IMG/VR virus record: IMGVR_UViG_3300046534_001374
Location: 75,596-139,595 of that record
Source: a virus
DNA length: 64,000 nucleotides
Strand: one strand, 5' to 3'
The position numbers were made by a program, and so were the translations under genes. Below are positions 8,899 to 45,173 of this stretch, one piece after another. Position 1 is the first letter of the stretch. Every line of letters starts with the position of its first letter. The notes beneath the pieces were generated by a model. The model was given only the letters and a program-made list of their open reading frames with translations. It ran no database searches and was not told where the DNA came from.

Positions 8899-9384
8899 CT
8901 ATCGAGTTTCGTAAACTTTAGTGAAATCGGTATTGGGCATAAACCATGTATCCTTTACGTCAACCTCGCCATCTTCCTCTAGATTCCACAGAACCCAACC
9001 ATCGTTATTAGGGTTGGCGTATTCCATAGGTCCATCCAAAGTGCCCAGTTCAACAGGATTAATTCCAACTTGCTCTGCTTTGATTGGGTTCTTAGTCCAA
9101 AGATTAGAGGACCATTCATCGGGCATGAGACCTTCAAAAGGATTGTGTGAAGTCCATCCTACGGGATTGTGTTCATCGCCAGCAACTAGATGTGCGACTG
9201 TGTCTTTATCGTTAATCTGAACCCAACATCCTTTAAGATGTTCTTGTTTATTTCCTTCTCCCCAAGAAGTTGATTTGTCTAAGGAAATAGGGTCTGCGCA
9301 CCAAAACATCATTTTTGGTTCGTCTGTTTTTTTGTAGTAGGTTTTCATTTTTAGTTCTTCTGGTTTTCTGTAGTAGGTCTCCAT
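8899..9384 (-). CDS. PGDYG-like domain hypothetical protein
   Basis: C-terminal TLDGPM...GWVL...F..VYE pattern; start likely 9384 or 9348. Confidence 0.5.
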   Translation of the reverse strand: METYYRKPEELKMKTYYKKTDEPKMMFWCADPISLDKSTSWGEGNKQEHLKGCWVQINDKDTVAHLVAGDEHNPVGWTSHNPFEGLMPDEWSSNLWTKNPIKAEQVGINPVELGTLDGPMEYANPNNDGWVLWNLEEDGEVDVKDTWFMPNTDFTKVYETR

Positions 9385-9693
9385 AAATTTGAAGTTACCA
9401 TACGAATTCCTCAAAACAACCCCTAAAATGAAAATAATCGAAAATGTGGAAAACCTCAAAATTTCCCCGCACCTAAATATAATATATGTTTTATATAAGA
9501 TTAATACGGTTTTAAATGAAGTTGTTATAGTATTATGTGTTCCGCCAGAGGCGGTTATATTATTAATATTATATTAAAACCGTTTTTATTCTTTATTTAA
9601 TCCAGATTCTAAGAATATTTAATATCTAGGTAAAAATTTTTCAAGCCATAAAATGAAAAAAGATGAAAAAAGATTTTTATTTGCTTTGAAAAG

Positions 9694-9729: not shown

Positions 9730-10221
9730 ATGAGTGAGGGTCAATACGATGTTTTTGATAAAATGATTACAAAAATCAAAAGCCGCAATGCTAAAAAAAT
9801 AGCACAGGATTATTTTGATGATTGGGAACGGGATGCATCGGTAGACCAGCTAACATTAATGGTTAAATTAGAGGAGGTTTCTTTGATTGCACATAAATGG
9901 TCAAAGAGAAATTTTGACCAAAAAATGTATTTGTATGAACTTGGTAGAATGAGAGAAACTGTTTTTCAAAAACTTAAAAAAATCAAACAACATTCAGGAG
10001 ATATTTTAGATAAAAGTAGATTTGGAACACTGTCAGAGGATGCTCCAGCTTGGGGTTATGCGTTAAAGAAGGAACAACCTCTTATAGATATTGATAATAG
10101 CATTGCAGAGAATGTGTTGTTGTCTGAGTTTATTCAGGAATATGTAAACTTTGCAAAATTCACATTGATGAAGTCTTGTAGTAGTATTGTTGAACTTAAA
10201 AAAGTCGAAGCCCTAACATAA
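9730..10221 (+). CDS. uvsY: recombination mediator UvsY-like
   Basis: WERDASVDQLTL...LIAHKWSK helical pattern, size, and position directly before uvsW. Confidence 0.6.
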   Translation: MSEGQYDVFDKMITKIKSRNAKKIAQDYFDDWERDASVDQLTLMVKLEEVSLIAHKWSKRNFDQKMYLYELGRMRETVFQKLKKIKQHSGDILDKSRFGTLSEDAPAWGYALKKEQPLIDIDNSIAENVLLSEFIQEYVNFAKFTLMKSCSSIVELKKVEALT

Positions 10222-30548: not shown

Positions 30549-33500
30549 CTACTCACAGGGAATACAATTAGAGTTCTTTGTCACTGAAAGTTCGCTGTCG
30601 GAAGCTCTAGTAAGAAGTTCCATAATGTCGTCTATATCTGTATTAGGATCTGCGATAAGATCGGTAATCTTATCGAAGTTGGAACTGTTTTCATTGCAGT
30701 CTTCAAATAACTTGAAAAGATTGGGATCTTGATATCTGATAGGGGTTTGTTTGCCCCTCAGTCTTGATTTTTTATGGACAACCTCTGGGGCTAAAATAGG
30801 TTCCGCACCAGCCGCCGCAGCACCACATTGACGGACATCATCATTAGTATCCAATAATGTAGAAGATATAGTAGCAACTGTATGCGAATGGGATGAATTG
30901 GTTAAACTGGACACTGCAACAGACACCACATCACCACCCATAGAATCTTTACCCATAATAATACCTGCGGGTAGATCGCTATAGCTTATAGTGGTTTCGG
31001 TTTCCGAGTATTGTAGAGGCGCTGTAATATGTTGAGTAGTCATACCACCTTCGTTGTGGATTCCACCCTTAACCACCATATTAGAGCTAATTGCTACACT
31101 AGAATCTAGTGCTACCGTTTTATACGACTCCCCGCCGATTAGATTGACTCTAGGTTTGATGGTAATGACATCAGCGGTAAGTTCCAGAGACTTACCACCA
31201 TCAAGCACCACCTCATTGTTAGAAGATATATTAACTTGATCAGCCGAGATAGTCATGATTCTACCTTGTAGCTCAAACATACCAAGAGTCTTCTGACTAA
31301 TACCATTCGCACCCACAAATAAAGCATATTTGTTTGATACCATCATAGAGTAATCACCGCCAGACAAACTATTAGTGGCGACGGGCTCAACGTGTGGAGT
31401 TGGGACATACATCGGGAATACACCTTTGCCAGACTTGGAAGGCATCTGACCCATAAGCTTCCTCTTCCCCACAGGATCGACTCTGATAGAATTCAAATCA
31501 TTCATATTAGAACCTACAAAGATTGTATGGGATCTAGAGATGTAGTCTGTTACATTACCACCTTTACTCAAACGATTTTCGAGTTCTGACATCTTATCAG
31601 AATTCGCATTGATCATATCAGGGATCTCTTTTTTCCTAGGATCTCTTTTAAAGACACCTTCGGCAGACCAAGGAACTTTACCGCTACCTTGGCAGTTGAA
31701 ACAATTCTCACGAGCTTCACTTGTTTCCGAAACAGTAGATTTACCAGCGGATAAACTTTCGGAAATACCGCCAGCACCATTAGGCATAGCGGGAGTGAAT
31801 GTAGACGGTGTAGTTGTCCTAGTTGGGAATTTGTTTTTTCCGTTGCATACAGGACAATCCGTAGTGTCCCCATCCTGCGTCTGTAGAGGCGAGGTATCCA
31901 ATTCATGACCAGAACCAGCCCTTTGTAAATCAAAGAGTTGTTGCGTATCATGGATGGGTTGGTGTAGTTCTTTAATTCTTTTTGATATGTCGGCATCACC
32001 TTTAACATTACCGAATTTATTATAAACATCACCCTTAACTATAAGCTCCTTATCACCTTGAATAAAGAATGAGCCATCACCCCTAACAGTTGAGAATTCA
32101 TCACCTTTAATCAAACGAGTTTTACCGCCAACCGCAAATTCGGTAGTCCCCATTTGATTCATCTCATAGGAACCGCCATGAGCAGAGCCAATTTTATATC
32201 TTTCACGGCCAGTGGTATCGACTATTTCCGCATATCCACCCCTACCATTTATTACGGTTTTACCCCTATATATATTTGATTCATCACCTTCCATTGGTTC
32301 GGGATTATCTGGAGATGGCGAACTAATATCATAAACCCCCGCATAGTCTTGGGGTTTAGGATTGTTTGCAAAAACGACAGGGTAATCTATATCTCCACCT
32401 TCGAAGAAAACCCACACATTAGCCCCCACATCGGGTGTTGAAAAAGAGCCACGGGAAACGTTATTGTAAGGGGTATGCGCAATAGAGTTCGAAGCAGGAT
32501 TTACTTTATTGTTTTCAGGTTTATCGGTGTAGTCTTTATTGTTGTTTGAGATGTATGTATCCAGTTTAGCTTGCGCTTCTGCCTTTTTCTCGGTATCGGA
32601 TTCGTCAATCTCTAAATTAGCCCAGAACAAATCTCTCTCCTCTCGAAGTGAATTTGCCGCCTCGACATTTTCGGTCGTTGGTTTGGTTCTTGCCAACTCG
32701 GAAGCTTCATAGATCTTTTTACCAAAATCCACAGTTTTTTTAATATCAGTATCGGAGATATCTATACTACTCAGAAAAGCCTCATCACGAGTTTCTTCGG
32801 GGTGTTTGTTACCGACAGCACCAAAAGCATCTCTGGTGGTTACAACCTTACCGCTAGCCAAAGGTCTGATAATATACCTCATGGCAAATTCCCTTTCGCC
32901 AATAGTTTCGCCATTATACCTCAATACAGCACCCGTTCTATCACCACCGACATTGGTTGAGATGCTAGTATTTTCATGCGGAGCCATCAAAACAGCACCT
33001 TGGATTTGCCCTAAAGTCTCAAGAAGAATCTTATTATATTCTCCTATGTTTTGAACAACACAATTGATAGCCGCCACATCTTTATTAAAGAAGGGTTCTG
33101 TGAATATTACAGGATTACTAGAAGGGAAGTTTTTCCTCTTGACACCTCGGTTTTTCCTCGGAACTCCGTGACTAGCGAAGAACTGCCCCAACCTTTGCAG
33201 GTATTGGGTGGCTCTATTTTCTTCATCCGAAGAAGCACCCGAGGGTATCAAGACTTCAAACCCTTTGGCGCTTGCACTAGCGGCATTGAAGTCTAATGAA
33301 ATCTTTCGATCACCAACTCTGGATTCAAATTTACCCATCTTGGCTTTGATATCATTCCTAGAGCCACAGAAGATTCTTACACCAGAATTAACAGAAAATC
33401 CCCCATCACAAGATCCTGAAGAAAATGCATTCGCAGCAGATTGTGTTGGCTTCGATATAGTTGGCTGCGGTGTCGAAGCGGGAACGGGCGGTGGTTTGAC

Positions 33501-34247
33501 ATCACCCCTTCTAAGCGGACCCCAGTAACGAGATAAGCCCCTAGTCCGACCACCCGCGATAATATTATCATCACTAAGTAATTTTTCTGCAATGCTAATA
33601 GTTTGATCAATATTAAATTGGGGGTCATAAAGTTGCTCCAATGTATACGCTTCCCCTGAAGGGTTGTAGCCTTTATTCTGCCCATCTTCCGGAGACAGTT
33701 GATATAGTCCATGTGATCCACTAGGTATGTCGGCACGGCCTTGATCGCCAACAGTCCCTGTTTTGAAGCTTGATTCCTTATATCCTAAAGTGACGAAGAA
33801 ATTAGCCCAACTTTCAGGGGAACCGTCAATATTAAACTGAGCAGCATCCGAAGGAATCTTTCCATTAAGTTGTGAGTTCCTAATAGCTCCTATGAAATAA
33901 GACCTAACCTCTTCGGGATCAACTCTACCTTCATCATCTGCGGAAACCGAACCATCAAATCCAGTGTAGCCATCCCCAAAAGTTTCAACCCCACCGTAAC
34001 CATAAGACGATCCACCACCAGCCATCACTGGTTGTGCAACTTCAGCCCAAGGCAAATTTTTAGAAACAGTATCGACTAATTTTTTACTATAACCATCAAC
34101 CAATCCCTTTTCACTACCTCCATTAGCATCTATATCTTGTTGATATATTTCTTTATGGACCGCAGGAACCCAAACCTTCACTTTACCCGCACGACTAGGA
34201 TCGGCTCTCTTAAAAACGATCCCTCTAAAATTTCCTAAATGTTGCAT
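30549..34247 (-). CDS. gp5: baseplate hub / tail spike (gp5-like) with peptidoglycan hydrolase domains
   Basis: RGIV..RADP..AGKVKVWVP, LPWA, P.VGA.VWVFFEGGD..YPV OB-fold motifs, beta-helix repeats, inserted enzymatic domains. Confidence 0.85.
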   Translation of the reverse strand: MQHLGNFRGIVFKRADPSRAGKVKVWVPAVHKEIYQQDIDANGGSEKGLVDGYSKKLVDTVSKNLPWAEVAQPVMAGGGSSYGYGGVETFGDGYTGFDGSVSADDEGRVDPEEVRSYFIGAIRNSQLNGKIPSDAAQFNIDGSPESWANFFVTLGYKESSFKTGTVGDQGRADIPSGSHGLYQLSPEDGQNKGYNPSGEAYTLEQLYDPQFNIDQTISIAEKLLSDDNIIAGGRTRGLSRYWGPLRRGDVKPPPVPASTPQPTISKPTQSAANAFSSGSCDGGFSVNSGVRIFCGSRNDIKAKMGKFESRVGDRKISLDFNAASASAKGFEVLIPSGASSDEENRATQYLQRLGQFFASHGVPRKNRGVKRKNFPSSNPVIFTEPFFNKDVAAINCVVQNIGEYNKILLETLGQIQGAVLMAPHENTSISTNVGGDRTGAVLRYNGETIGEREFAMRYIIRPLASGKVVTTRDAFGAVGNKHPEETRDEAFLSSIDISDTDIKKTVDFGKKIYEASELARTKPTTENVEAANSLREERDLFWANLEIDESDTEKKAEAQAKLDTYISNNNKDYTDKPENNKVNPASNSIAHTPYNNVSRGSFSTPDVGANVWVFFEGGDIDYPVVFANNPKPQDYAGVYDISSPSPDNPEPMEGDESNIYRGKTVINGRGGYAEIVDTTGRERYKIGSAHGGSYEMNQMGTTEFAVGGKTRLIKGDEFSTVRGDGSFFIQGDKELIVKGDVYNKFGNVKGDADISKRIKELHQPIHDTQQLFDLQRAGSGHELDTSPLQTQDGDTTDCPVCNGKNKFPTRTTTPSTFTPAMPNGAGGISESLSAGKSTVSETSEARENCFNCQGSGKVPWSAEGVFKRDPRKKEIPDMINANSDKMSELENRLSKGGNVTDYISRSHTIFVGSNMNDLNSIRVDPVGKRKLMGQMPSKSGKGVFPMYVPTPHVEPVATNSLSGGDYSMMVSNKYALFVGANGISQKTLGMFELQGRIMTISADQVNISSNNEVVLDGGKSLELTADVITIKPRVNLIGGESYKTVALDSSVAISSNMVVKGGIHNEGGMTTQHITAPLQYSETETTISYSDLPAGIIMGKDSMGGDVVSVAVSSLTNSSHSHTVATISSTLLDTNDDVRQCGAAAAGAEPILAPEVVHKKSRLRGKQTPIRYQDPNLFKLFEDCNENSSNFDKITDLIADPNTDIDDIMELLTRASDSELSVTKNSNCIPCE

Positions 34248-34251
34248 AATA

Positions 34252-35352
34252 TTAAGTTATTGGTGTTTCCAATCTGGTGTCTAAATCGGCAATAGCTGCA
34301 TCTAGTTGTTTAGCCCACGCCTTTTCAGCAGCAATGATATTAGTCGTATCACTAGACCCACCGGATAACGGAGGTTTTGAATTGTTGCTTGCATTGTTCT
34401 CGGTTTTATTGATCTTGTCTCCGAGTATATCAACAAATGCGGTTTCTCGACCGATAGAAATATTTAAAGGTTCGTTGGAAACGCTATATTCATGACACAT
34501 AGGATATAGATTGTTAATCTTTTTAACCAGATCCCCGTATTGTTGGAATAGAATTCCTAGATATTTTTTTCTGTTATCCAAAACATCCAAGAAGCTAAAA
34601 GTATCTTGTGCTAAATTATATAGATGCGCCAAAGGTTCGTCCATAATATTAAATATTTTACCATATGTGCATTTAGGTAAAACTCTCGAACCTAGTCTTT
34701 GGAATAGTCTGATATTGTCGTGGAAGTTTTCAGCATATTCAGGTAGCATACGAATCCATGTGTGTTGTCCTAGAACACTACTAAGTCCTGTGCTGTCCAA
34801 TACATTACCTATAATACCGTCAACCATATTTATTGCATTGTCAGGAATTATGATGTTAGAATAGATCGTTCCTAGAGCTTCTGAAACTTCCGTAAACAAC
34901 GGCATCTTATTCAGACTAGAGGTTATAGCCGTTCTAACACCATCAGGTAGGAGTATATCTACATTTTTAAGGTAACCACGCAAAAGAGTTGCAGACACAT
35001 CCTGAAGAGTAATGTCCCCGATAAGATCGCCCAGCTCACTCACATCCTTTACAATACGCTGTATACCTATAACCGTATTTTCAATCTCCAAAATTGAGGA
35101 TCTAAATCCCTCATCTCTACCGAATAGGTTTTTAGTGAATGATACTAATTCTGTGCTTGGACCCCTATAAGGCCCGTGCAGCTTCGCAACTTTGGCTACA
35201 GAATCCTCAACACTACCAACGGATTGATTTATGAGAGAAATGTTATCAAAAACTTTACGTGTTTTGTAACCATCTCGACTCGGCATTTGGGACTCTAAAT
35301 ATTCGCGACCAACAATCTCTGCTGCGGCGATGGGGTTACAAATATTACTCAC
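34252..35352 (-). CDS. probable virion structural protein
   Basis: 366-aa ORF upstream of gp5, GTG start with TAAGTA-N6 late motif. Confidence 0.6.
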   Translation of the reverse strand: MSNICNPIAAAEIVGREYLESQMPSRDGYKTRKVFDNISLINQSVGSVEDSVAKVAKLHGPYRGPSTELVSFTKNLFGRDEGFRSSILEIENTVIGIQRIVKDVSELGDLIGDITLQDVSATLLRGYLKNVDILLPDGVRTAITSSLNKMPLFTEVSEALGTIYSNIIIPDNAINMVDGIIGNVLDSTGLSSVLGQHTWIRMLPEYAENFHDNIRLFQRLGSRVLPKCTYGKIFNIMDEPLAHLYNLAQDTFSFLDVLDNRKKYLGILFQQYGDLVKKINNLYPMCHEYSVSNEPLNISIGRETAFVDILGDKINKTENNASNNSKPPLSGGSSDTTNIIAAEKAWAKQLDAAIADLDTRLETPIT

Positions 35353-35396
35353 TGAATTTACTTATGTTGTGGGTTTGTTATTACTAAGTATAACAT

Positions 35397-35654
35397 ATGA
35401 AAACAACGATTGCGGCTATTTTTGTTAACCTGCTAAAATTCCTAGCTGCTCGCGAATTAAATTCGAACGTTAGAACAATCATAGAACTCTATAATGAAGA
35501 AGAAAAACTTATATCAAAAATTAGCGAAGCTCACGGGTCTCTCGATTTTAGCCCTGATGGTTCTTACATCTTGCAACTCAAGCATAGGCTTGAAGCCAAT
35601 AGAAACATCATCAAACTTCTCGAAGCCAAAACGCTTCCAAGTTCCAGCGAATAG
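35397..35654 (+). CDS. candidate i-spanin (Rz-like)
   Basis: N-terminal hydrophobic segment then helical region; late motif TAAGTA-N6; overlaps a lipoprotein ORF. Confidence 0.5.
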   Translation: MKTTIAAIFVNLLKFLAARELNSNVRTIIELYNEEEKLISKISEAHGSLDFSPDGSYILQLKHRLEANRNIIKLLEAKTLPSSSE

Positions 35655-35757
35655 TAAAGTGGTATTTAAAGGGAAGGTATTCACATTACCCGAAGATACC
35701 GATGTTGTTACTTTGGAACAACACAAAGAAGAGGTAACTAGATTACTAATAGATTAA
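35494..35757 (+). CDS. candidate o-spanin lipoprotein (Rz1-like)
   Basis: Basic N-terminus, hydrophobic core, lipobox LTSC; +1 frame overlap with 35397 ORF. Confidence 0.6.
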   Translation: MKKKNLYQKLAKLTGLSILALMVLTSCNSSIGLKPIETSSNFSKPKRFQVPANSKVVFKGKVFTLPEDTDVVTLEQHKEEVTRLLID

Positions 35758-35930
35758 CCTTCTAGTAATTGCTTTTCTCCATCCGGTTCGATGCTTTCTT
35801 CTATTTTTAGTTGGTCCAAGTTTTTGAGAATTAAGATAGGGTATTCAACCCATCTATGAGGGGCATCATTGAGAAGATCGATTAATTGGGTTAATTTAGA
35901 TTCCTCAATAACAAATAATTTTTCATCCAT
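35754..35930 (-). CDS. small hypothetical protein
   Basis: ATG 35930 (MDEKLFV) with TAATTA-N5 motif. Confidence 0.55.
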   Translation of the reverse strand: MDEKLFVIEESKLTQLIDLLNDAPHRWVEYPILILKNLDQLKIEESIEPDGEKQLLEG

Positions 35931-35969
35931 ATTTTTAATTATCGGGAGATTGGTTTTAAACAATTATTT

Positions 35970-36088
35970 TATGAACGTCAAAGTGGAGGCGCGATCTAAA
36001 CCGAACTCCGTTCGGGATTAAAACGCGATCTAATATAAAACTCAACTAAGTTAGCGGTAGATCGTCGCTCTCCCACGCCTTGTTGTCT
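35970..36088 (-). repeat. attC: attC site 1 (R'' AGACAAC, R' GTTCATA)
   Basis: 119 bp; 16-bp stem GTGGAGGCGCGATCTA / TAGATCG[T]CGC[T]CTC[C]CAC on + strand. Confidence 0.87.
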
Positions 36089-36135
36089 CTTCAAGTAAAA
36101 CTTGAACTATTGATTTCGACATCTAATTAAATGTG

Positions 36136-36333
36136 ATGAAAAGTAAAATCAAAGCATGGTGGGAAACATTTTGGTTCAAATATGTCCCTGCTTCTACAAG
36201 TCAAGTGTTGTCGTGGCAGAGTAAACAGCGCGAGGAGCTGAATCGTCGGGATGCGGAGCGATATTACAATCGTCAAAATATGAAGAATAATCAACAAAAG
36301 CAGAAAGACGGTCCTGAAAATCACGAAGGATAG
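36136..36333 (+). CDS. cassette A reverse ORF (late motif)
   Basis: TAATTA-N6-ATG; MKSKIKAWWETFWFKYV... Confidence 0.55.
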   Translation: MKSKIKAWWETFWFKYVPASTSQVLSWQSKQREELNRRDAERYYNRQNMKNNQQKQKDGPENHEG

Positions 36334-36511
36334 CCTCCAATTCACCACTAATAAAAGATTCTTCTATTACTTCTCCGTTTGGTTGAAAAGTTTTTCCACT
36401 GAATTTCTCATCATACGATTCATCTGAGAGTTTCTCCTTGATCACAATCCTAACGGATGATAAGTTGGAAAACGTGTAATCTAATTCGTGGTGTTTTGAG
36501 AATCTATTCAT
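36194..36511 (-). CDS. cassette A forward ORF
   Basis: ATG ~15 nt after the G/TT crossover, 105 aa. Confidence 0.55.
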   Translation of the reverse strand: MNRFSKHHELDYTFSNLSSVRIVIKEKLSDESYDEKFSGKTFQPNGEVIEESFISGELEAILRDFQDRLSAFVDYSSYFDDCNIAPHPDDSAPRAVYSATTTLDL

Positions 36512-36520
36512 GATTTTCTA

Positions 36521-36652
36521 AGACAACGATGGAGCATATCTAATCAATACCAATTTCAATATGAATACAAAAAATAATAAACAAACAACTAATGACTCCT
36601 CCAAAACCAACCAAGGTAGCGGTAGTGAGTTAGATACTGCGCCTTGTTCACC
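36521..36652 (-). repeat. attC: attC site 2, divergent type (R'' GGTGAAC, R' GTTGTCT)
   Basis: 132 bp; stem GCATATCTAATC / GA[G]TTAGATA[C]TGC, 5/6-nt spacers, shares TAGCGGTAG with the other copies. Confidence 0.8.
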
Positions 36653-36920
36653 TCTCCGTCTTTTTGATCTGACTAAGACAACACCAGAAATGGTTGAACA
36701 AGAATCAAATTACGAATCCCCTACTTTGAAGCAGAAACAACTAGCTCTGAAAAAAGAGGTATATCCAGATCAATCCCCGCAAGCTCTATCAAAGAGTTAT
36801 CAAGACGCTCTTGAGCTTGGTTACGTGAAACCTCAGAATCCCAATTTTGATTGGGAACCTTATAAAGATTTGGTTTGTAGATTGGTAAATTCCGAAGATC
36901 AGATTTCAGCTTCGGTATAA
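36561..36920 (+). CDS. cassette B reverse ORF starting inside attC2
   Basis: 119 aa, reads through the R'' box as ELDTAPCSP. Confidence 0.45.
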   Translation: MNTKNNKQTTNDSSKTNQGSGSELDTAPCSPLRLFDLTKTTPEMVEQESNYESPTLKQKQLALKKEVYPDQSPQALSKSYQDALELGYVKPQNPNFDWEPYKDLVCRLVNSEDQISASV

Positions 36921-36996
36921 TATATTGAAGCTGTTTCTTCCTGTGGTGTAATGATTCTAGTATTTCTAGGCATTGTGCTTTTGTTGGATCGGGCAT
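36721..36996 (-). CDS. cassette B forward ORF
   Basis: ATG ~18 nt after crossover, 91 aa. Confidence 0.45.
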   Translation of the reverse strand: MPDPTKAQCLEILESLHHRKKQLQYIIPKLKSDLRNLPIYKPNLYKVPNQNWDSEVSRNQAQERLDNSLIELAGIDLDIPLFSELVVSASK

Positions 36997-37008
36997 GTCC
37001 TATTTCTA

Positions 37009-37127
37009 GGTGAACGTCAATGTGGAGGCGCGATCTAAACCGAACTCCGTTCGGGATTAAAACGCGATCTAATATAAAAATAAACTAAGTTAGCGGTAGA
37101 TCGTCGCTCTCTCACGTCTTGTTAGCC
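37009..37127 (-). repeat. attC: attC site 3 (R'' GGCTAAC, R' GTTCACC)
   Basis: 119-bp copy of the repeat family. Confidence 0.88.
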
Positions 37128-37157
37128 CTTCAAATGGTTTTAGGGATAAATATAAGC

Positions 37158-37352
37158 ATGAGAAAACCAAACAGCCCACTAAGAACAATGGATAAGCTCC
37201 TTAAGCCATACATGCAGGAAATAAAAAATCCCGATAGCTGTGATGATCTACTAAATTATTTTGCAGATTGTATGGATGAATGGTGGAATAATCTAGATGC
37301 ACGAAATAAAGAATGCCCCCTTCCCCGAAAAGCTAATCTAGAGAAAATATAG
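37158..37352 (+). CDS. cassette C reverse ORF (late motif)
   Basis: TAAATA-N5-ATG; 64 aa MRKPNSPLRTMDKLLKPY... Confidence 0.6.
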   Translation: MRKPNSPLRTMDKLLKPYMQEIKNPDSCDDLLNYFADCMDEWWNNLDARNKECPLPRKANLEKI

Positions 37353-37569
37353 TTCCGTCAGTTTCAATTCGTTTGGCAAAATCTTGTATCTTATCTTTAT
37401 CTTTCAGTGAATTTAGAGCTACTTCAATCTGAGAAGCCGTTAGATTCCCTTTTTCTTGTTCAGTGATATGCCATTCTCCAAAATCTTCAGAGTTTATTTT
37501 CTTTAAGATTTCGGTTTCCAGTTCTCTTTTTGGGTTTAGTCTAAGATTATAGTTATTTGGTTCTGACAT
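37333..37569 (-). CDS. cassette C forward ORF
   Basis: ATG ~23 nt after crossover, 78 aa. Confidence 0.6.
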   Translation of the reverse strand: MSEPNNYNLRLNPKRELETEILKKINSEDFGEWHITEQEKGNLTASQIEVALNSLKDKDKIQDFAKRIETDGTIFSLD

Positions 37570-37586
37570 GATTTCTTAGATTCTCG

Positions 37587-37704
37587 GGCTAACGTCAATG
37601 TGGAGGCGCGATCTAAACCGAACTCCGTTCGGAATTAAAACGCGATAATACATAAACATAACTAAGCTAGCGGTAGATCGTCGCCCTCTCACGCCTTGTT
37701 CTGC
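37587..37704 (-). repeat. attC: attC site 4 (R'' GCAGAAC, R' GTTAGCC)
   Basis: 118-bp copy of the repeat family. Confidence 0.88.
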
Positions 37705-37724
37705 ATCTGGGCCTAAGTATGAAT

Positions 37725-38075
37725 ATGACCTATGAACAAGAACGAATCCTAATAAACCAAACAATCCAAGATTACCTAAATTCATGGCATCATCGCATCT
37801 GGACCCAAGCGATCACTCAACTTGACCTGTCAGTTCCAAATACCCCCTTTCGTCTTGTGAGATTTGAACTAGGGCGACTTCTTCTTGTTTTATCTCACCT
37901 TGTGTTTGTCGGTTCCCATCTAAAAGACAGAGTGCTTCAAACATTCGGTGCTGGGGAAAAATTTGACACCTTACAAGGTCCAGTGGCAACATTAGGTTTT
38001 CGAGATCAGTTCTCAGACTATACCAAAATCTACCGACATAAGATCCACCACGAAGATCAAAATCGTTGCAAATGA
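37725..38075 (+). CDS. cassette D reverse ORF (late motif)
   Basis: TAAGTA-N5-ATG; MTYEQERILINQTIQDYL... Confidence 0.5.
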   Translation: MTYEQERILINQTIQDYLNSWHHRIWTQAITQLDLSVPNTPFRLVRFELGRLLLVLSHLVFVGSHLKDRVLQTFGAGEKFDTLQGPVATLGFRDQFSDYTKIYRHKIHHEDQNRCK

Positions 38076-38187
38076 AAATAATCCTTTCGGAGCTTTGATA
38101 TACCATTTTCGCATCAAGAAAATTACTTAGATCAAGTTCTTCGTCGGGATCACTATAATACAGTCTAAAATATGTAGGTTTACTCAT
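37813..38187 (-). CDS. cassette D forward ORF
   Basis: ATG ~22 nt after crossover, 124 aa. Confidence 0.55.
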   Translation of the reverse strand: MSKPTYFRLYYSDPDEELDLSNFLDAKMVYQSSERIIFICNDFDLRGGSYVGRFWYSLRTDLENLMLPLDLVRCQIFPQHRMFEALCLLDGNRQTQGEIKQEEVALVQISQDERGYLELTGQVE

Positions 38188-38203
38188 GGATTCTTAGTTT
38201 CTA

Positions 38204-38322
38204 GCAGAACGTCAATGTGGAGGCGCGATCTAAACCGAACGTAGTTCGGGATTAAAACGCGATCTAATATAAAAATAAACTAAGTTAGCGGTAGATCGTC
38301 GTCCTCCCACGTCTTGTTCTGC
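38204..38322 (-). repeat. attC: attC site 5 (R'' GCAGAAC, R' GTTCTGC)
   Basis: 119-bp copy of the repeat family. Confidence 0.88.
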
Positions 38323-38363
38323 ATCTGGATTTGAAAAGTTTGATGTGATTACTAATTAAAGTA

Positions 38364-38513
38364 ATGAACGAACAAAAAACTTTGGTGTATGATGGTGAAC
38401 TAACTCTAGACGAAGCCAGAAACAAAATCAGAAACAAAGATGGTTCAAAACTTACGGATGCGGAGTTTGTTGAATTATTCCAACCCTTTACCAAGGAAGC
38501 TTCTCGTCCCTAA
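38364..38513 (+). CDS. cassette E reverse ORF (late motif), 49 aa
   Basis: TAATTA-N5-ATG; MNEQKTLVYDGELTLDEARNKIRNKDGSKLTDAEFVELFQPFTKEASRP (below ORF-track cutoff, translated by hand). Confidence 0.55.
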   Translation: MNEQKTLVYDGELTLDEARNKIRNKDGSKLTDAEFVELFQPFTKEASRP

Positions 38514-38676
38514 TTTCAATATTGTTTAAAATCACAAGCGGTAACCCCTCATTTGTTCGTTTAGTAATTTTAGATTGTTTCTCACACCACTCCATTTCTG
38601 ATTGATTTGGTGTTTGGAATGACCAAATATAATATTCTGGTCCTTGTGAGTTGGTTACGGTGTATTGCTGGATCAT
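38488..38676 (-). CDS. cassette E forward ORF
   Basis: ATG ~29 nt after crossover, 62 aa. Confidence 0.55.
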   Translation of the reverse strand: MIQQYTVTNSQGPEYYIWSFQTPNQSEMEWCEKQSKITKRTNEGLPLVILNNIEIRDEKLPW

Positions 38677-38699
38677 AATTATCTAGTAGGTAATTTATT

Positions 38700-38818
38700 G
38701 CAGAACGTCAATGTGGAGGCGCGATCTAAACCGAACTCCGTTCGGAATTGAAACGCGATCTGATATAAAAATAAACTAAGCTAGCGGTAGAACGTCACTC
38801 TCTCACGTCTTATTAATA
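38700..38818 (-). repeat. attC: attC site 6, degenerate (R'' AAC mutated to AAT, stem mismatches)
   Basis: 119-bp copy with right arm TAGAACGTCACTCTCTCAC and R'' reading ATTAATA on + strand. Confidence 0.8.
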
Positions 38819-38861
38819 ATATAAAACTTGAAAAGAGGAATTTTTATAGTAATCTCATCTT

Positions 38862-39764
38862 ATGAAGAACATCCTAATAGATGCCAACAATATGCTACAC
38901 AGGAGCATAGGCAACACCGAGAAGTATCTAGAAAAAAATTCGAGAGCAACTAGAAAGCTGGACAATAAAGGAAACGATGTCACTGCTTTGCAGAAGTTTT
39001 TTTCGGATATATACTATACCTCCTCAGATTTTCTTGATGCAGACACAGAAATTTATATGGTGTGGGATAGGAAGATCGACCCAGAAGCGATCAACTGGAG
39101 AACCACAGTTAACCCACTTTATAAAGCAAACAGAGGATCTATAGATACTAATGGTCCGAAGAAGCAAGTGTATAGCCTATGTAAACATGCCAAATATATA
39201 GCAGATGCCTACGGGTTTCATTCAGTATTTCCCCTCTGCTCCGAAGCAGACGACCTAATACATTATCTCAATAAAAACCTAGAAGGCGGTAGTTTGATTA
39301 TTTCTTCCGACCATGACTTCTTCCAATGTATATCTGAGGATTGCAGTATTTATAACCCCCAGAAAAGAATGCTTCTGGAACTTGATAACTGGGATGAATA
39401 TGCCCCAGTATCTAAAGAACACTATGTTTTATGGAAATCAATTAAGGGCGACCCCTCTGATAACATCAAAGGGTTGTTCCGTTATGGTGAGAAGAAAGCT
39501 AAAAAGCTGGTCGAGAACTGGGACGAGCTTTCACCTAAACTGACAGAGGAGCAAATAGATATTATTGAGGAAACTAAAAGTTTAATTGATCTTAATTTTA
39601 AACCTTTATCTGATAAAGAGGTGTGCTTCATTAAGAGGCAGATCGAGCCTAAAGAAAAAAAGAAAGATTGGGAATTGACTCGGATTCTGGACAACTACCA
39701 TGTCACCTACAAGACCAGAGAGATGTGGGATAACTTCAACACCCTAAAAGAGTTATATCTATAA
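38862..39764 (+). CDS. rnh: RNase H / 5'-3' flap exonuclease
   Basis: LIDANN, WR..VNPLYKANR, EADD, SSDHDFFQ, GDPSDNIKG. Confidence 0.92.
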   Translation: MKNILIDANNMLHRSIGNTEKYLEKNSRATRKLDNKGNDVTALQKFFSDIYYTSSDFLDADTEIYMVWDRKIDPEAINWRTTVNPLYKANRGSIDTNGPKKQVYSLCKHAKYIADAYGFHSVFPLCSEADDLIHYLNKNLEGGSLIISSDHDFFQCISEDCSIYNPQKRMLLELDNWDEYAPVSKEHYVLWKSIKGDPSDNIKGLFRYGEKKAKKLVENWDELSPKLTEEQIDIIEETKSLIDLNFKPLSDKEVCFIKRQIEPKEKKKDWELTRILDNYHVTYKTREMWDNFNTLKELYL

Positions 39765-40207
39765 TGGAACCGAAACAAATATTGAATAAAACGAAAGCAT
39801 GGCTTGTTGGTGGGGTTGTGTTAAGTCTTTTGGTGTTTTATGTGGTTGGATTGGTGGCGAAGCTTTCGATCTTGGCCTTATTATTAACTGTAATTTCGGT
39901 TTTGATTTATAACATAAAACTAAGTAATAAAATATTTCAAGAAGAAGCAATAACTAGTAACACTAAGTTTCGGGAAGAAACCAGACGAGCTGAGATAGAC
40001 CACCAGAAACAAATACACCAAAGGATTTCAGATAGAATCTGGGACATTCCAATTGAGATGCGTTGTAGGCATTGTTCATCTATTGAGGAAATAGATTTTG
40101 GATTAGAGGTCCAAGGATTTAAATGTAAGAAATGTAATGGCTACAACAAGCTATTCATACATTTCACAGCAATAGGAGAAACCGAAAACTCAAAAAGCAA
40201 TGGATAG
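39764..40207 (+). CDS. membrane protein with C-terminal zinc ribbon
   Basis: Two TM helices; CRHC...CKKC. Confidence 0.65.
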   Translation: MEPKQILNKTKAWLVGGVVLSLLVFYVVGLVAKLSILALLLTVISVLIYNIKLSNKIFQEEAITSNTKFREETRRAEIDHQKQIHQRISDRIWDIPIEMRCRHCSSIEEIDFGLEVQGFKCKKCNGYNKLFIHFTAIGETENSKSNG

Positions 40208-42209: not shown

Positions 42210-45173
42210 ATGTCACAGCCAATCTCACCAGCGATTATCATCAATGAGAATTTTGATGCTAGACCTTTAATCCCAGAAGGATATAATGTGCTATGTTTAG
42301 GTTTCACATCCGAAGGTGTAGCGAACGAGCCATTTATCCTAAGAAGCTTACCCGAGTTTATTACTCTCTTTGGTGAGCCAGATCCGTCACGAACCGAACA
42401 GATCTACTCATTCGAGTCTGCTAAAAGGATTATTGAGTCTGGAGCCAACTTAGTTTTTGTTAAACTTCCATATGGACCTGAAGAAGGTTTCGATGTTGGT
42501 GATGAATACTCAGCCCTCCTTTACCCAGCACTTGAGGACACAGTCTCCGAGTCGGTTATTTTAAATTACAAGGCTACTCAAGATATTACTCCAGAAGAAT
42601 TCGGAGATCTCAAAACGGTCAAACCGTTTGATACTGGTTTGGCTGAAGGTGGATTACTGAGTGCGTATGAGTATACTCAGATCATTGCAGCAACTACCAC
42701 ATTTGATCCAGCGATCACTATTGATGACTTTGTATATAATTCTAATTCGGGTGGTCTTAAAACTGAATACACATACGTAGTAACAAGCGGCGACTTAAAT
42801 GCCACTAACGGAGTTCAGTTGACTGGACTGGAATCCGCAATCCAATCAGCATTTTCGGTAAACGATTCTGGTTATATTGGAGCGGTAGGGGCCGGTTCCG
42901 AACGTGTTCCTATCAGTGATTATCAATATAAGTTAATGGTCGAGGAAAATCCATTAGAAGCAGATAAATTTAAAGCCGTTATCCCCCGTAGCGGGGCAAC
43001 TGCCGAGTGGGTTTATGTTGGGGCTTCATACCCTGCTATTGTGGATCTAGGGGCTTATGAATTATATGATGGTGTGGGCGTTTCAGCCGGAACTATAGAT
43101 TTGGAAGTTGTATTTGTTTCGGGGCTTGTAGCCAACCAAGAATTAACCACAACAGAGTATCTCGCAATGCTCCTAATTATGGATGATAGTTCGTTCGAAC
43201 CATCACTCCTTACGGAAGTGTTTACAGTAACCGACAGTGTAGGCTATGTTCTCGGACAACCTGTTCGTATCGATCTTGATGAAAATGGCTACGATAAGAT
43301 CCAATGCGGCCTTATTGACTGGTCAACCAGTTACACTATTTTTGATGATACTATTACTACGTTTGACCCTGTCGAGTTTGGTAAGGTAGGTCTTATTGTA
43401 TTAGATAGCGGTCGCTCCAAAACCAAGGATGCTCGCGAAGGTTACTATATCACCGTAACAGACAATACCGATGGCGACCCAGCGTCTGATTGGGATTCTA
43501 TCACTAATATCAAGACCAGCACATCCACTACGGGTGAAGTTATTTGGGACGACCTGTCAACAGACACTTACGACTTTAATTTGAAAGCTCCTTTCGGAGA
43601 ACCTGTCCCCAGTATATCGCAAGCAGTTTCTGCTCTTTCCGAACAGCATATCAATGGATCATGGTCAGACCCAGATCATAGAAACTTCTTGAATGTTACC
43701 CTATGGAGACTTCGTAAAGATGTTCAAAATGGTTCTAATCAACTAATTCCCAGTGTTGTTGAATCCCACACTGGTTCTATTTCTGAAATCGAGAAGACTA
43801 TCACCGAAGGTGGCTTCCAACAAAATATCTTTTTGGAGAGTAAAGTTGAAGGCGATTCAAGTAGACTGACGGTATTAGTAAATCCCAATATCGCAGATGA
43901 TAGTTACGTAGGCACTGATGGACAGAAAATCAAGAATGTTAGAATGTGGAGAGGTAACACTAATGGTTTAGGGTCTAGCTTCCTTTCTCTTTCAGAAGCT
44001 AACTTTAAGGGGTATTCCAACGGGATGTATTCCGTTAGTCAGTATGTAGCGAAACAACCAGAAAAAGCTTGTGACGTGGGTAATATTCCGGCTAAACTGA
44101 GAAACGCTCTTTGCACCGTTGATAATCCCGAGCGTGTAAGCCTCGACCTTTCGATTGAAGCGGGTTTAGGAACCATCTGGAACACGGTTAAGGAAGACCG
44201 AGATCAATGGCTCACAAGCACACAGGCGGACAACTCTTTCTGCTTCAATGATAAAGTATTCCTTAATGTCGTTGAAGATCTTGGTAGAACAGTTCCCGAA
44301 GGTTCTGAAACAGGAAACATGAGAACTAACTGGAGACAGATCTACGACACTTTCCTCACTTTCACCGAATCGACTAGAGTGGTTAACGGCGGTATACATC
44401 ACTTACATATTGCAGATAACCTCAGACATTCTCTGGTTAATGGTAGGGATTGTAAAGTTTATGATTCGAAGACCAAATGTAAAAATGCTGGAGTTTTCCA
44501 GACCGAAGTTTACTGGCCCTTGAAAAACCTTACTAAAGGATTGAGCAACACTATCACGACTATCGATGCCCAATGGTATAAGTCGAGCAACGTTTATAGT
44601 TCTTCTCCAGTTTGGATTCCGAGTTCACCTGTTACTGCGGCACTGTTCGCACAAACAGACTTCCCTTGGTTGGCTGCTGCTGGTGTTCAAAGAGGTTTGA
44701 TCCGAAATGTTGTTGATGCAGCAATCGATCCGGTTCTTCGCGACCGAGATTACTTGTTCAAGATCCAGCAAAACGCGGTATTCTTCGACAAGAACTACGA
44801 CGGTTTCCTTCGTTTCGCAGATAGAACAATGCTTAAGAATGATAACCACCAACTAAAAGAAAACTCTGCGAGAAGACTACTTATTTGGCTTGAAGGAAAT
44901 CTTCAGTCCGCGCTTAGACCGTTCTTATTTGAGCAGAATAACCTTCAGACCAGAATTCGTTTCAAGAATAACATTGAACTCTACTTGAACACCCTGCTTC
45001 AAAATGGGGCGATTGAAGATTTCAATGTAAGTTTGAAAAAGAATACTCTAGCCACACAACAGGACGGTTGCTTAGTTGCTGATATCGGCATCACCATTAC
45101 CGGAATCGTTAATCAGATCAAACTTAACCTTAACCTCCTTAGGTTGGATCAAAACTTCCAAGAAGTTTTTTAA
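42210..45173 (+). CDS. gp18: tail sheath protein
   Basis: ISPAIIINE, F..LFGEP, PWLAAAGVQRG, RRLLIWLE, FLFEQN...TR..F sheath motifs. Confidence 0.92.
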   Translation: MSQPISPAIIINENFDARPLIPEGYNVLCLGFTSEGVANEPFILRSLPEFITLFGEPDPSRTEQIYSFESAKRIIESGANLVFVKLPYGPEEGFDVGDEYSALLYPALEDTVSESVILNYKATQDITPEEFGDLKTVKPFDTGLAEGGLLSAYEYTQIIAATTTFDPAITIDDFVYNSNSGGLKTEYTYVVTSGDLNATNGVQLTGLESAIQSAFSVNDSGYIGAVGAGSERVPISDYQYKLMVEENPLEADKFKAVIPRSGATAEWVYVGASYPAIVDLGAYELYDGVGVSAGTIDLEVVFVSGLVANQELTTTEYLAMLLIMDDSSFEPSLLTEVFTVTDSVGYVLGQPVRIDLDENGYDKIQCGLIDWSTSYTIFDDTITTFDPVEFGKVGLIVLDSGRSKTKDAREGYYITVTDNTDGDPASDWDSITNIKTSTSTTGEVIWDDLSTDTYDFNLKAPFGEPVPSISQAVSALSEQHINGSWSDPDHRNFLNVTLWRLRKDVQNGSNQLIPSVVESHTGSISEIEKTITEGGFQQNIFLESKVEGDSSRLTVLVNPNIADDSYVGTDGQKIKNVRMWRGNTNGLGSSFLSLSEANFKGYSNGMYSVSQYVAKQPEKACDVGNIPAKLRNALCTVDNPERVSLDLSIEAGLGTIWNTVKEDRDQWLTSTQADNSFCFNDKVFLNVVEDLGRTVPEGSETGNMRTNWRQIYDTFLTFTESTRVVNGGIHHLHIADNLRHSLVNGRDCKVYDSKTKCKNAGVFQTEVYWPLKNLTKGLSNTITTIDAQWYKSSNVYSSSPVWIPSSPVTAALFAQTDFPWLAAAGVQRGLIRNVVDAAIDPVLRDRDYLFKIQQNAVFFDKNYDGFLRFADRTMLKNDNHQLKENSARRLLIWLEGNLQSALRPFLFEQNNLQTRIRFKNNIELYLNTLLQNGAIEDFNVSLKKNTLATQQDGCLVADIGITITGIVNQIKLNLNLLRLDQNFQEVF

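Follow-up and report, generated by a model that had tools for sequence, protein, structure and literature searches.

Probable integron attC sites in the genome of a distantly T4-like lytic phage, with cassettes shared with a bacterial integron

Introduction

Does the repeat array between the baseplate and rnh genes of a phage genome consist of integron attC sites, and which enzyme would move its cassettes? The array lies in a window of 64,000 nucleotides, bases 75596–139595 of the 139,595-bp IMG/VR viral contig IMGVR_UViG_3300046534_001374, which is rated 65% complete. Integrons are bacterial gene-capture systems, and many chromosomal cassettes are anti-phage genes. A first-pass annotation had described, within window positions 35970–38818, five near-identical repeats of 118–119 nt (copies A–E) plus a divergent sixth (F), and had read them as attC sites of an integron-style cassette array. 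The coordinates of the copies and their start-to-start distances (551, 488, 578, 617 and 496) were reproduced here. Overall, we put at about 0.85 the probability that the repeats are genuine integron attC sites, which form a cluster of attC sites with no integron integrase (CALIN) in a lytic, distantly T4-like myovirus, with cassettes that are shared with a bacterial integron.

attC geometry of the repeats

In the bottom strand of an attC site, AAC is part of the 5' arm, the spacers of 5–6 nt are unpaired, and the arm opposite AAC has extrahelical bases, two or three in number, at positions 16, (20) and 23/24, the first and the last of them being 6 bp apart (Nivina 2016, PMC5027507). The chromosomal-type integron of Vibrio phage Va_90-11-286_p16 (MK672802; named in Qi 2023) was used as positive control. 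Unconstrained DNA folds of its Vibrio anguillarum attC bottom strands gave unpaired bases at 16, 20 and 24. With the identical script, the + strand of the phage copies gave unpaired bases at 16–17, 20–21 and 24 from the 3' end, and a 5-nt spacer at positions 8–12. Read from the outside, the 3' arm consists of the 7-nt R'' box followed by TTCTG / CAC / T/C / CTC / T/C / CGC / T / GCTAGA. The folds also show the inner hairpin CCGAAC-N3-GTTCGG and the AAC-6 nt and 5 nt-GTT spacers (GTCAAT in the 5' arm and GYCTT in the 3' arm of the + strand), both unpaired. The outer stem is 15 bp long, and its three bulged bases are all found in the 3' arm of the + strand. The hairpin, the spacers and the bulges on one + strand arm, as described in the first-pass annotation, were thus borne out by folds to which no constraint had been applied.

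Sites were tabulated with a stricter rule-based attC scan; a looser version was dropped, as it gave more than 100 random matches per 64 kb. About 25 distinct phage and bacterial sites follow one top-strand plan, xxxxAAC / AAnnC / 3 bp / bulge 16 / 3 bp / ... / 3 bp / 3 bp / TnnnAC / GTTxxxx. The typical copies, the divergent copies F and F2 (see below) and some 25 related sites all start with xxxxAAC and end with GTTxxxx, the exceptions in the core triplet being copy E (AAT) and a few bacterial sites (ATC/GAT). Copy E is degenerate: the AAC of its R'' box has become AAT, and two mismatches are present in the L stem. The ATC/GAT core occurs in some bacterial cassettes of contigs L110 and L111 (e.g. 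L111:783-883), where R'' CACTATC goes with R' GATAGTG. The bacterial sites of the system have bulges at 16/20/23-24 or at 16/23. In copy F the + strand reads AAC-6 nt-GCATATCTAA ... TTAGATA-C-TGC-5 nt-GTT. The homology between F and F2 spans AAC to one base beyond GTT and no further, and the AAC...GTT unit is therefore a discrete element in this second sequence type too.

Flank complementarity and strand assignment

Each of the five pairs of neighbouring copies in the window follows one rule: reverse-complementing the right flank of copy n gives the left flank of copy n+1 (GTTGTCT, GTTCACCT, GTTAGCCC, GTTCTGC and GTTCTGCA). The same rule holds for both pairs of a second array in the contig (GTTGTCTC and GTTCGCTA), which brings the total for the phage to seven of seven. 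Four to five free bases match per flank pair, which is far beyond chance. Cassette-wise R'/R'' complementarity was likewise found in 9/9 cases along the bacterial contig L115, and the Vibrio control has the same pattern. The left and right flanks of one and the same copy are unrelated, and a target-site duplication, as in miniature inverted-repeat transposable elements (MITEs), was rejected.

The covariation of flanks on which the first-pass annotation had relied was thus present in each of its five pairs. The orientation that was read from it does not follow, since the relation reads alike on both strands and the flank rule alone cannot set a direction. Orientation is fixed by the position of the bulged bases. 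In addition, the + strand gave the more stable fold in nine of the nine copies tested, and two stem variants (one in D and H, one in F2) read as G-T pairs in the + strand, where the opposite strand has A-C mismatches. On these three grounds the + strand is assigned as bottom strand and the minus strand as top strand. This agrees with the cassette open reading frames (ORFs), most of which lie on the minus strand and start 15–25 nt past each site.

Covariance models

A covariance model built from 14 Vibrio attCs only (R1) was searched unfiltered over both strands of the window. Copies D, B, E, C and A were its top five matches, each found on the minus strand at full length and with exact ends (15.4–18.4 bits, E-values of 0.023–0.13); the registration and the strand were exactly as predicted. 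Reciprocally, a model built from sites of the phage and its partner integron (R2) recovered the Vibrio attCs at exact ends on the top strand, with E-values of 0.026–0.25. R2 also detected, on the correct strand, attCs in the integron contigs L124 and L126, which were outside its training set. In an alignment of 22 distinct sites, 89.4% of the cells were paired, vs 65.6% after shuffling and 32–42% when the partner was slid. Compensatory changes were present in 15 of the 15 L-stem pairs, and 0 of 500 shuffles attained any of the observed measures. The attC identity proposed at first pass is thus upheld by cross-detection with a Vibrio-trained model, by the reciprocal search and by covariation over 22 sites.

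A bacterial integron with the same sites and cassettes

Two phage cassettes recur in a bacterial integron at 99–100% identity, and a third abuts an integron attC. The 62/49-aa cassette together with attC D (window 38705..38211) is 100% identical in contigs L113 and L114, where it lies between bacterial cassettes. The match begins at the TT of G|TT, cassettes with a GC content of 0.45–0.53 come after, and downstream of the phage cassette both contigs are 100% identical to L115. The 81-aa cassette of the second array was found directly after attI (...ATACTG|TTGTCTC) in L111 and L109, the heads of which match the attI region of L115 with 95% identity. The same cassette follows another attC in L110 and attC H in the phage; its junctions with attI, with attC H and with the other attC all fall at the same G|TT. 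In L104 the 124-aa cassette (cassette 2) follows, again at G|TT, a foreign attC with a 100% identical counterpart at L115:3911-4003; in IMG/VR no match was found for the 86 nt of foreign sequence at this end of L104. The other variant contigs break at or within 1–5 nt of G|TT. Insert boundaries away from G/TT had been named beforehand as a finding that would speak against attC sites; the variant contigs, attI x attC products among them, have their breaks at this point or no more than a few bases from it.

Starting from the neighbour cassette of 156 aa, 16 contigs were retrieved from many samples, and a complete integron was found on metagenome contigs, several of which come from the phage's own samples. 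L115 carries a divergent tyrosine recombinase gene, the product of which matches the integron integrase family TIGR02249 (E 3e-62, 210 bits; Pfam SAM_4 and Phage_integrase), an attI region at about L115:1290-1420 and ten co-oriented cassettes including DUF6714 and HicA/HicB. A full-length relative, P0001, which is 96% identical to the L115 fragment, matches the whole TIGR02249 profile with 345 bits vs a cut-off of 265. Its locus is chromosomal, with a GC content of 0.58 and adjoining PSCyt1/PSCyt2/PSD1 and DUF1501 genes. The platforms of L115 and P0001 are 89% identical at the nucleotide level, and this identity ends at the G|TT of attI. The named relatives of the integron integrase (IntI), at about 70–80% identity, belong to Haloferula, Luteolibacter and Akkermansiaceae (Verrucomicrobiota). 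In L115 and L124–L126 an IntI-type recombinase gene is divergent from an attI-led array, as in a complete integron, and the attCs of this partner integron were found on the expected strand with the same design as the phage sites.

Within the arrays, L118 and L124 contain group II intron reverse transcriptases, and L124 also a RelB/YafQ pair. The reverse transcriptase/maturase genes are located at L118:2742-4172 (-) and L124:1-5481, the copy in L118 being opposite to the cassette genes. An association of similar group II introns with attC sites is known.

The same phage was found with 100% identity in several Joint Genome Institute (JGI) samples and in one Logan run by exact-protein look-ups. 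In at least five samples the assemblies of the arrays were identical, with phage genes on either side (L100, L104, L105, L106 and L108). The first-pass annotation had raised a chimeric assembly with host DNA as a possible objection; identical arrays in independent samples show that the array region is not an assembly chimera.

The phage genome and its arrays

The window holds five cassettes and six sites, and an array of three sites (copies H, G and F2) lies elsewhere in the genome; positions are given in Table 1. With one truncated copy, ten repeats are present across the 139.6-kb contig, at three separate loci. The typical copies are 84–100% identical to each other, and F2 is a second copy of the F type. 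The truncated solo attC (contig ~67855-67938, equivalent to L130:8455-8538) lies outside the window and distant from both arrays; it retains the R''/L'' arm and the centre, without the other arm and the inner hairpin.

Table 1. Features of the window array and of the second array. Positions are those of the window unless marked as contig positions; R1 and R2 are scores with the Vibrio model and the model of the phage/partner-integron system.
Feature	Position	Strand	Remarks
5'-3' exonuclease gene (rnh-like)	38862..39764	+	Flanking phage gene, divergent from array
attC E	38700..38818	-	First site on top (minus) strand, adjoins rnh; R1 17.6 bits, R2 92 bits
Cassette 1 body	38323..38699	-	GC 0.35
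Cassette 1 ORF, 62 aa	38488-38676	-	
Cassette 1 ORF, 49 aa	38364-38513	+	Convergent
attC D	38204..38322	-	Typical type, site of cassette 1; R1 18.4 bits, E 0.023; R2 112 bits
Cassette 2 body	37705..38203	-	ORF 37813-38187 (-), 124 aa, no known family
attC C	37587..37704	-	Typical type, site of cassette 2
Cassette 3 body	37128..37586	-	ORF 37333-37569 (-), 78 aa; convergent + ORF ending 37352 (72-77 aa)
attC B	37009..37127	-	Typical type, site of cassette 3
Cassette 4 body	36653..37008		Coding strand uncertain
attC F	36521..36652	-	Second sequence type, same geometry; R2 68.6 bits
Cassette 5 body	36089..36520	-	ORF 36194-36511 (-), 105 aa
attC A	35970..36088	-	Typical type, last site of array
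Baseplate hub-like protein (1232 aa, Phage_base_V) and 366-aa protein	30549..35352	-	Flanking phage genes
attC H	contig 9037-9154		Second array, outside window
attC G	contig 9546-9664		Second array, outside window
attC F2	contig 10076-10207		Second array, outside window; second copy of F type

The G|TT in the R' end of attC E falls at 38706|38705, which is the start of the 62/49-aa cassette, and the crossover point of attC D is at 38210|38209. The R' flank of attC A (GTTCATA) runs into a phage ORF (35754-35963, -). For cassette 4, an ORF of 119 aa (36561-36920, +) that starts inside attC F outscores for coding an ORF of 91 aa on the other strand (36721-36996, -). This 119-aa product and that of another bottom-strand ORF, at contig 9826-10167 (-) (L001:1690-2031; 113 aa), have only their first 30 residues in common (MNTKNNKQTTND...). 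These residues are encoded inside the F-type attC, and the proteins are unrelated past the GTT of the site. Any cassette next to the F-type site may receive its start codon and an N-terminal tag from it.

The phage cassette bodies have a GC content of 0.32–0.40, and their coding scores are positive with a model trained on long phage ORFs. Searches of the cassette proteins in PHROGs, Pfam, PADLOC and ESM Atlas gave nothing usable on function. In the bacterial arrays, the three cassettes with a typical attC (81-aa, 62/49-aa and the 120-aa of L087) have bodies with a GC content of 0.32–0.36, and their neighbours 0.40–0.57. Contig L087 (Ga0209187_1026623) comes from a sample distinct from those of the phage contigs and was the only contig retrieved when metagenomes were scanned for the exact repeat pattern. 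Its typical-type attC, 88% identical to copy D, lies behind the AT-rich 120-aa cassette in a GC-richer two-site array; the next cassette encodes 395 aa of no known family. A search for further contexts of the L087 cassette gave none that was informative. The same pattern scan gave no match or only chance 15-mers in IMG/VR, and no match or only chance matches in GC-rich genomes among 185k species genomes. No Rfam match was found within 35000-40000.

The T4-type DNA polymerase encoded by the contig has 27% identity to those of T4-like phages; further genes encode a DnaB-like helicase, an SbcC-like nuclease, tail sheath, large terminase, baseplate hub and 5'-3' exonuclease. The "T4-like phage genome" of the first-pass annotation is therefore T4-type as stated, and the kinship is a distant one. 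No close cultured phage was found by megablast of the array region, the relatives retrieved with rnh by tblastn were all below 32% identity, and no related loci were found in IMG/VR with rnh.

Motifs resembling CTATAA(A/T)T were seen in the upstream regions at window positions 42210, 48033, 50601, 54450 and 57126, only 5–12 nt before the start codons of structural genes. They look like late promoters of the T4 type, the mRNAs of which would have next to no leader. A comparable TATAAAAATA is present on the + strand in the centre of the typical attC.

Discussion

Neither an integron integrase gene nor an attI lies beside the phage array, which adjoins rnh and baseplate genes, and it is filed as a CALIN, not as a complete integron, for this reason. 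The following mechanism is proposed. The + strand would act as the recombinogenic bottom strand and, when single-stranded, would fold into a hairpin of R box, unpaired spacer and L box. This hairpin, with its three bulged bases, would be bound by IntI, which would cut AAC just before its C (G|TT on the top strand). Recombination of attC x attC would free a cassette as a circle, and recombination of attC x attI or attC x attC would insert it. The enzyme would be supplied by the sedentary chromosomal integron of a bacterium of the Planctomycetes–Verrucomicrobia–Chlamydiae (PVC) group, with its nearest named relatives among the Verrucomicrobiota. We infer that the bacterial IntI may catalyse such events on phage DNA during infection, and a direction of cassette transfer is likewise inferred. 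The use of a host IntI for acquiring, excising and shuffling cassettes had been proposed at first pass. An external IntI with attI and matching attC design, which carries phage cassettes, was indeed found; shuffling was not seen, as the phage arrays were identical in all samples.

Several observations weigh against attC sites that are served by this integron. No tyrosine recombinase (PF00589) was matched in the window, as had been stated before, or in the whole 139,595-bp contig (65% complete). Cassette polymorphism was not found in the phage context, all phage contigs being 100% identical. The R' boxes deviate from the wider consensus GTTRRRY, and the bottom-strand bulges at 16 and 20 are pyrimidines. 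A G is usual at position 16 of attC bottom strands. The E-values of R1 are marginal and their calibration is rough, and its five matches count as about one independent match, since the copies are near-identical. Two junctions are imprecise: upstream in L113 the sequence ...ACGA|TTCTGC has one extra A, and the junction of attC D and the 156-aa cassette (L113:612-634, also in L114 and L122) has five extra bases, ATTGAC-TCTACG|TTATGCC. Contigs L104 and L109, which lead from a bacterial site through a shared cassette to phage genes, may be assembly-graph walks. The L115 copy of intI departs from its 96%-identical relative after residue 329. Finally, that the bacterium of the integron would be the host of the phage is drawn only from their co-occurrence and shared cassettes.

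Two of these points are accompanied by further observations. The five extra bases are similar to the spacer in the attC ahead of the 156-aa cassette in L115. The first 115 nt of L115 (L115:1-115) have no match to the related platform; the intI copy may be disrupted, or the end of the contig may be foreign.

Other explanations account for part of the data. The repeats could be true attC sites in fragments of arrays that were acquired by illegitimate or homologous recombination, with the phage as passive carrier. Phages that bear off fragments of chromosomal integrons have been described (Qi 2023, PMC9892861), and the lack of intI and attI in the contig, the invariance of the phage arrays across samples and the decay of site E would fit such a fossil capture. 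However, the sites occupy three separate loci, and the shared cassettes occur singly, in differing bacterial contexts and at attI, rather than as one block. The cassette bodies, moreover, have phage-like GC contents (0.32–0.40) and positive phage-model coding scores, whereas the bacterial arrays have 0.45–0.57, and the typical attC type accompanies AT-rich bodies in three of three bacterial occurrences. We therefore consider a passive carriage of captured arrays unlikely. It is very unlikely that the sites are acted on by an Xer-like enzyme of the phage's own, encoded in the 35% of the genome that was not sampled; the contig is incomplete, but the 139.6 kb at hand encode no such enzyme, the geometry is canonically of the IntI type, and the sites co-occur with a TIGR02249 integrase and attI x attC junctions.

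A different view is offered by the promoter early stem-loops (PeSLs), regulatory cassettes with promoter and terminator modules in the hyperplastic region of T4-type phages that are moved by homologous recombination (Arbiol 2010, Comeau 2014). The repeats, too, immediately precede ORFans that are set between the core genes of a T4-type phage, their inner hairpin is followed by TTT and their centre is AT-rich; PeSLs form mini-circles and were themselves likened to integrons. Yet a consensus scan found no sigma-70 promoter in the typical repeats, and by eye only a weak GTTTAT-N18-TTTAAT was seen on the minus strand. The breakpoints fall at the outer AAC/GTT edge even with partners of unrelated sequence (attI, the X-type attC), sites of unrelated sequence retain the geometry through compensatory changes, and the same sites adjoin a bona fide IntI and attI. 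An identity as PeSL-like elements is thus highly improbable. The chance that the array region is an artefact, a chimera of phage and bacterial DNA, is close to negligible: contigs do break at repeats, and L104 and L109 have foreign ends, but independent assemblies of at least five samples cross the junctions of array and phage genes on both sides with 100% identity.

Returning to attC sites that recombine with a bacterial integron, the AT-rich composition of the shared cassettes suggests that they may originate in the phage lineage, in which case transfer would have been from phage to bacterium. More tentatively, and with a probability that we rate as rather low, the phage lineage could be a source of integron cassettes, the host IntI feeding phage-made cassettes into the chromosomal integron and the sites perhaps doubling as PeSL-like promoter/terminator modules. 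The grounds for this idea are that the typical attC bears unrelated ORFans of phage composition, and that the bodies remain AT-rich in the bacterial arrays in three of three cases.

The attC clusters of phages, of only recent report, had come with no natural partner. That a chromosomal integron and a lytic phage have the same cassettes, with junctions at the canonical crossover, is direct sequence evidence of cassette traffic between virus and bacterium. For the variable ORFan regions of T4-type phages, or at least for part of them, it offers an explanation that is site-specific, and it extends integron biology to uncultured bacteria that are nearest, by named relatives, to the Verrucomicrobiota. 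The origin of cassettes, an old question, becomes testable in a defined phage–bacterium pair. Since many chromosomal cassettes are anti-phage, those borne by the phage are candidate counter-defence genes.

Comparison with known systems

PeSLs are composed of a sigma-70 consensus promoter and a G/C-rich terminator hairpin and undergo homologous recombination at varied internal points (PMC2839356, PMC4122927). The phage sites resemble them as repeated intergenic elements that flank ORFans in variable regions, for which circular intermediates were proposed. They differ in their attC geometry, their G|TT breakpoints and their IntI partner, and thus in every defining feature tested.

The likeness to the attCs of sedentary chromosomal integrons (Vibrio cholerae repeat (VCR)-type, MK672802) is much more extensive. 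Both are about 120 nt long and homogeneous per array, with a 7-nt R box (AAC/GTT), a 5–6-nt unpaired spacer, bulges at 16/20/24, R'/R'' complementarity and small ORFan cassettes, and each is detected by the model of the other. Unlike the Vibrio sites, those of the phage lie in a lytic genome without adjoining intI, attI or cassette promoter (Pc). Their bottom-strand bulges are pyrimidines (T/C, T/C, T) instead of G, T, T, the spacer is fully unpaired, and several phage cassettes have two convergent ORFs or a bottom-strand ORF.

In a preprint (10.1101/2022.09.11.507474), IntI is described as able to insert cassettes at genomic attG sites outside attI and attC. Such insertion would offer an entry route for the first cassette into the phage genome. 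At the array ends, for which no dedicated test was made, no junction of the attG type was identified. No literature report of natural cassette sharing between a phage and an integron was found; the coverage was incomplete, and this is hence no proof of novelty. Three features seem to be new: attC sites of canonical geometry in a lytic phage of T4 type, a homogeneous attC type that is associated with the phage, and a natural partner integron that has cassettes in common with it.

The closest precedent is provided by virulent phages that carry attC clusters without an integrase; five of the six phage attCs tested there were recombined by IntI1 (Qi 2023, PMC9892861). The arrays described here are likewise integrase-less attC clusters in a virulent phage. 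They differ from those CALINs in that 6 + 3 (+1 truncated) homogeneous sites are present in one distantly T4-like phage, which was analysed at the sequence level. They differ further in that a natural partner integron was found for them; its attC sites are of the same design, and it has cassettes that are 99–100% identical to those of the phage, one of them located at attI.

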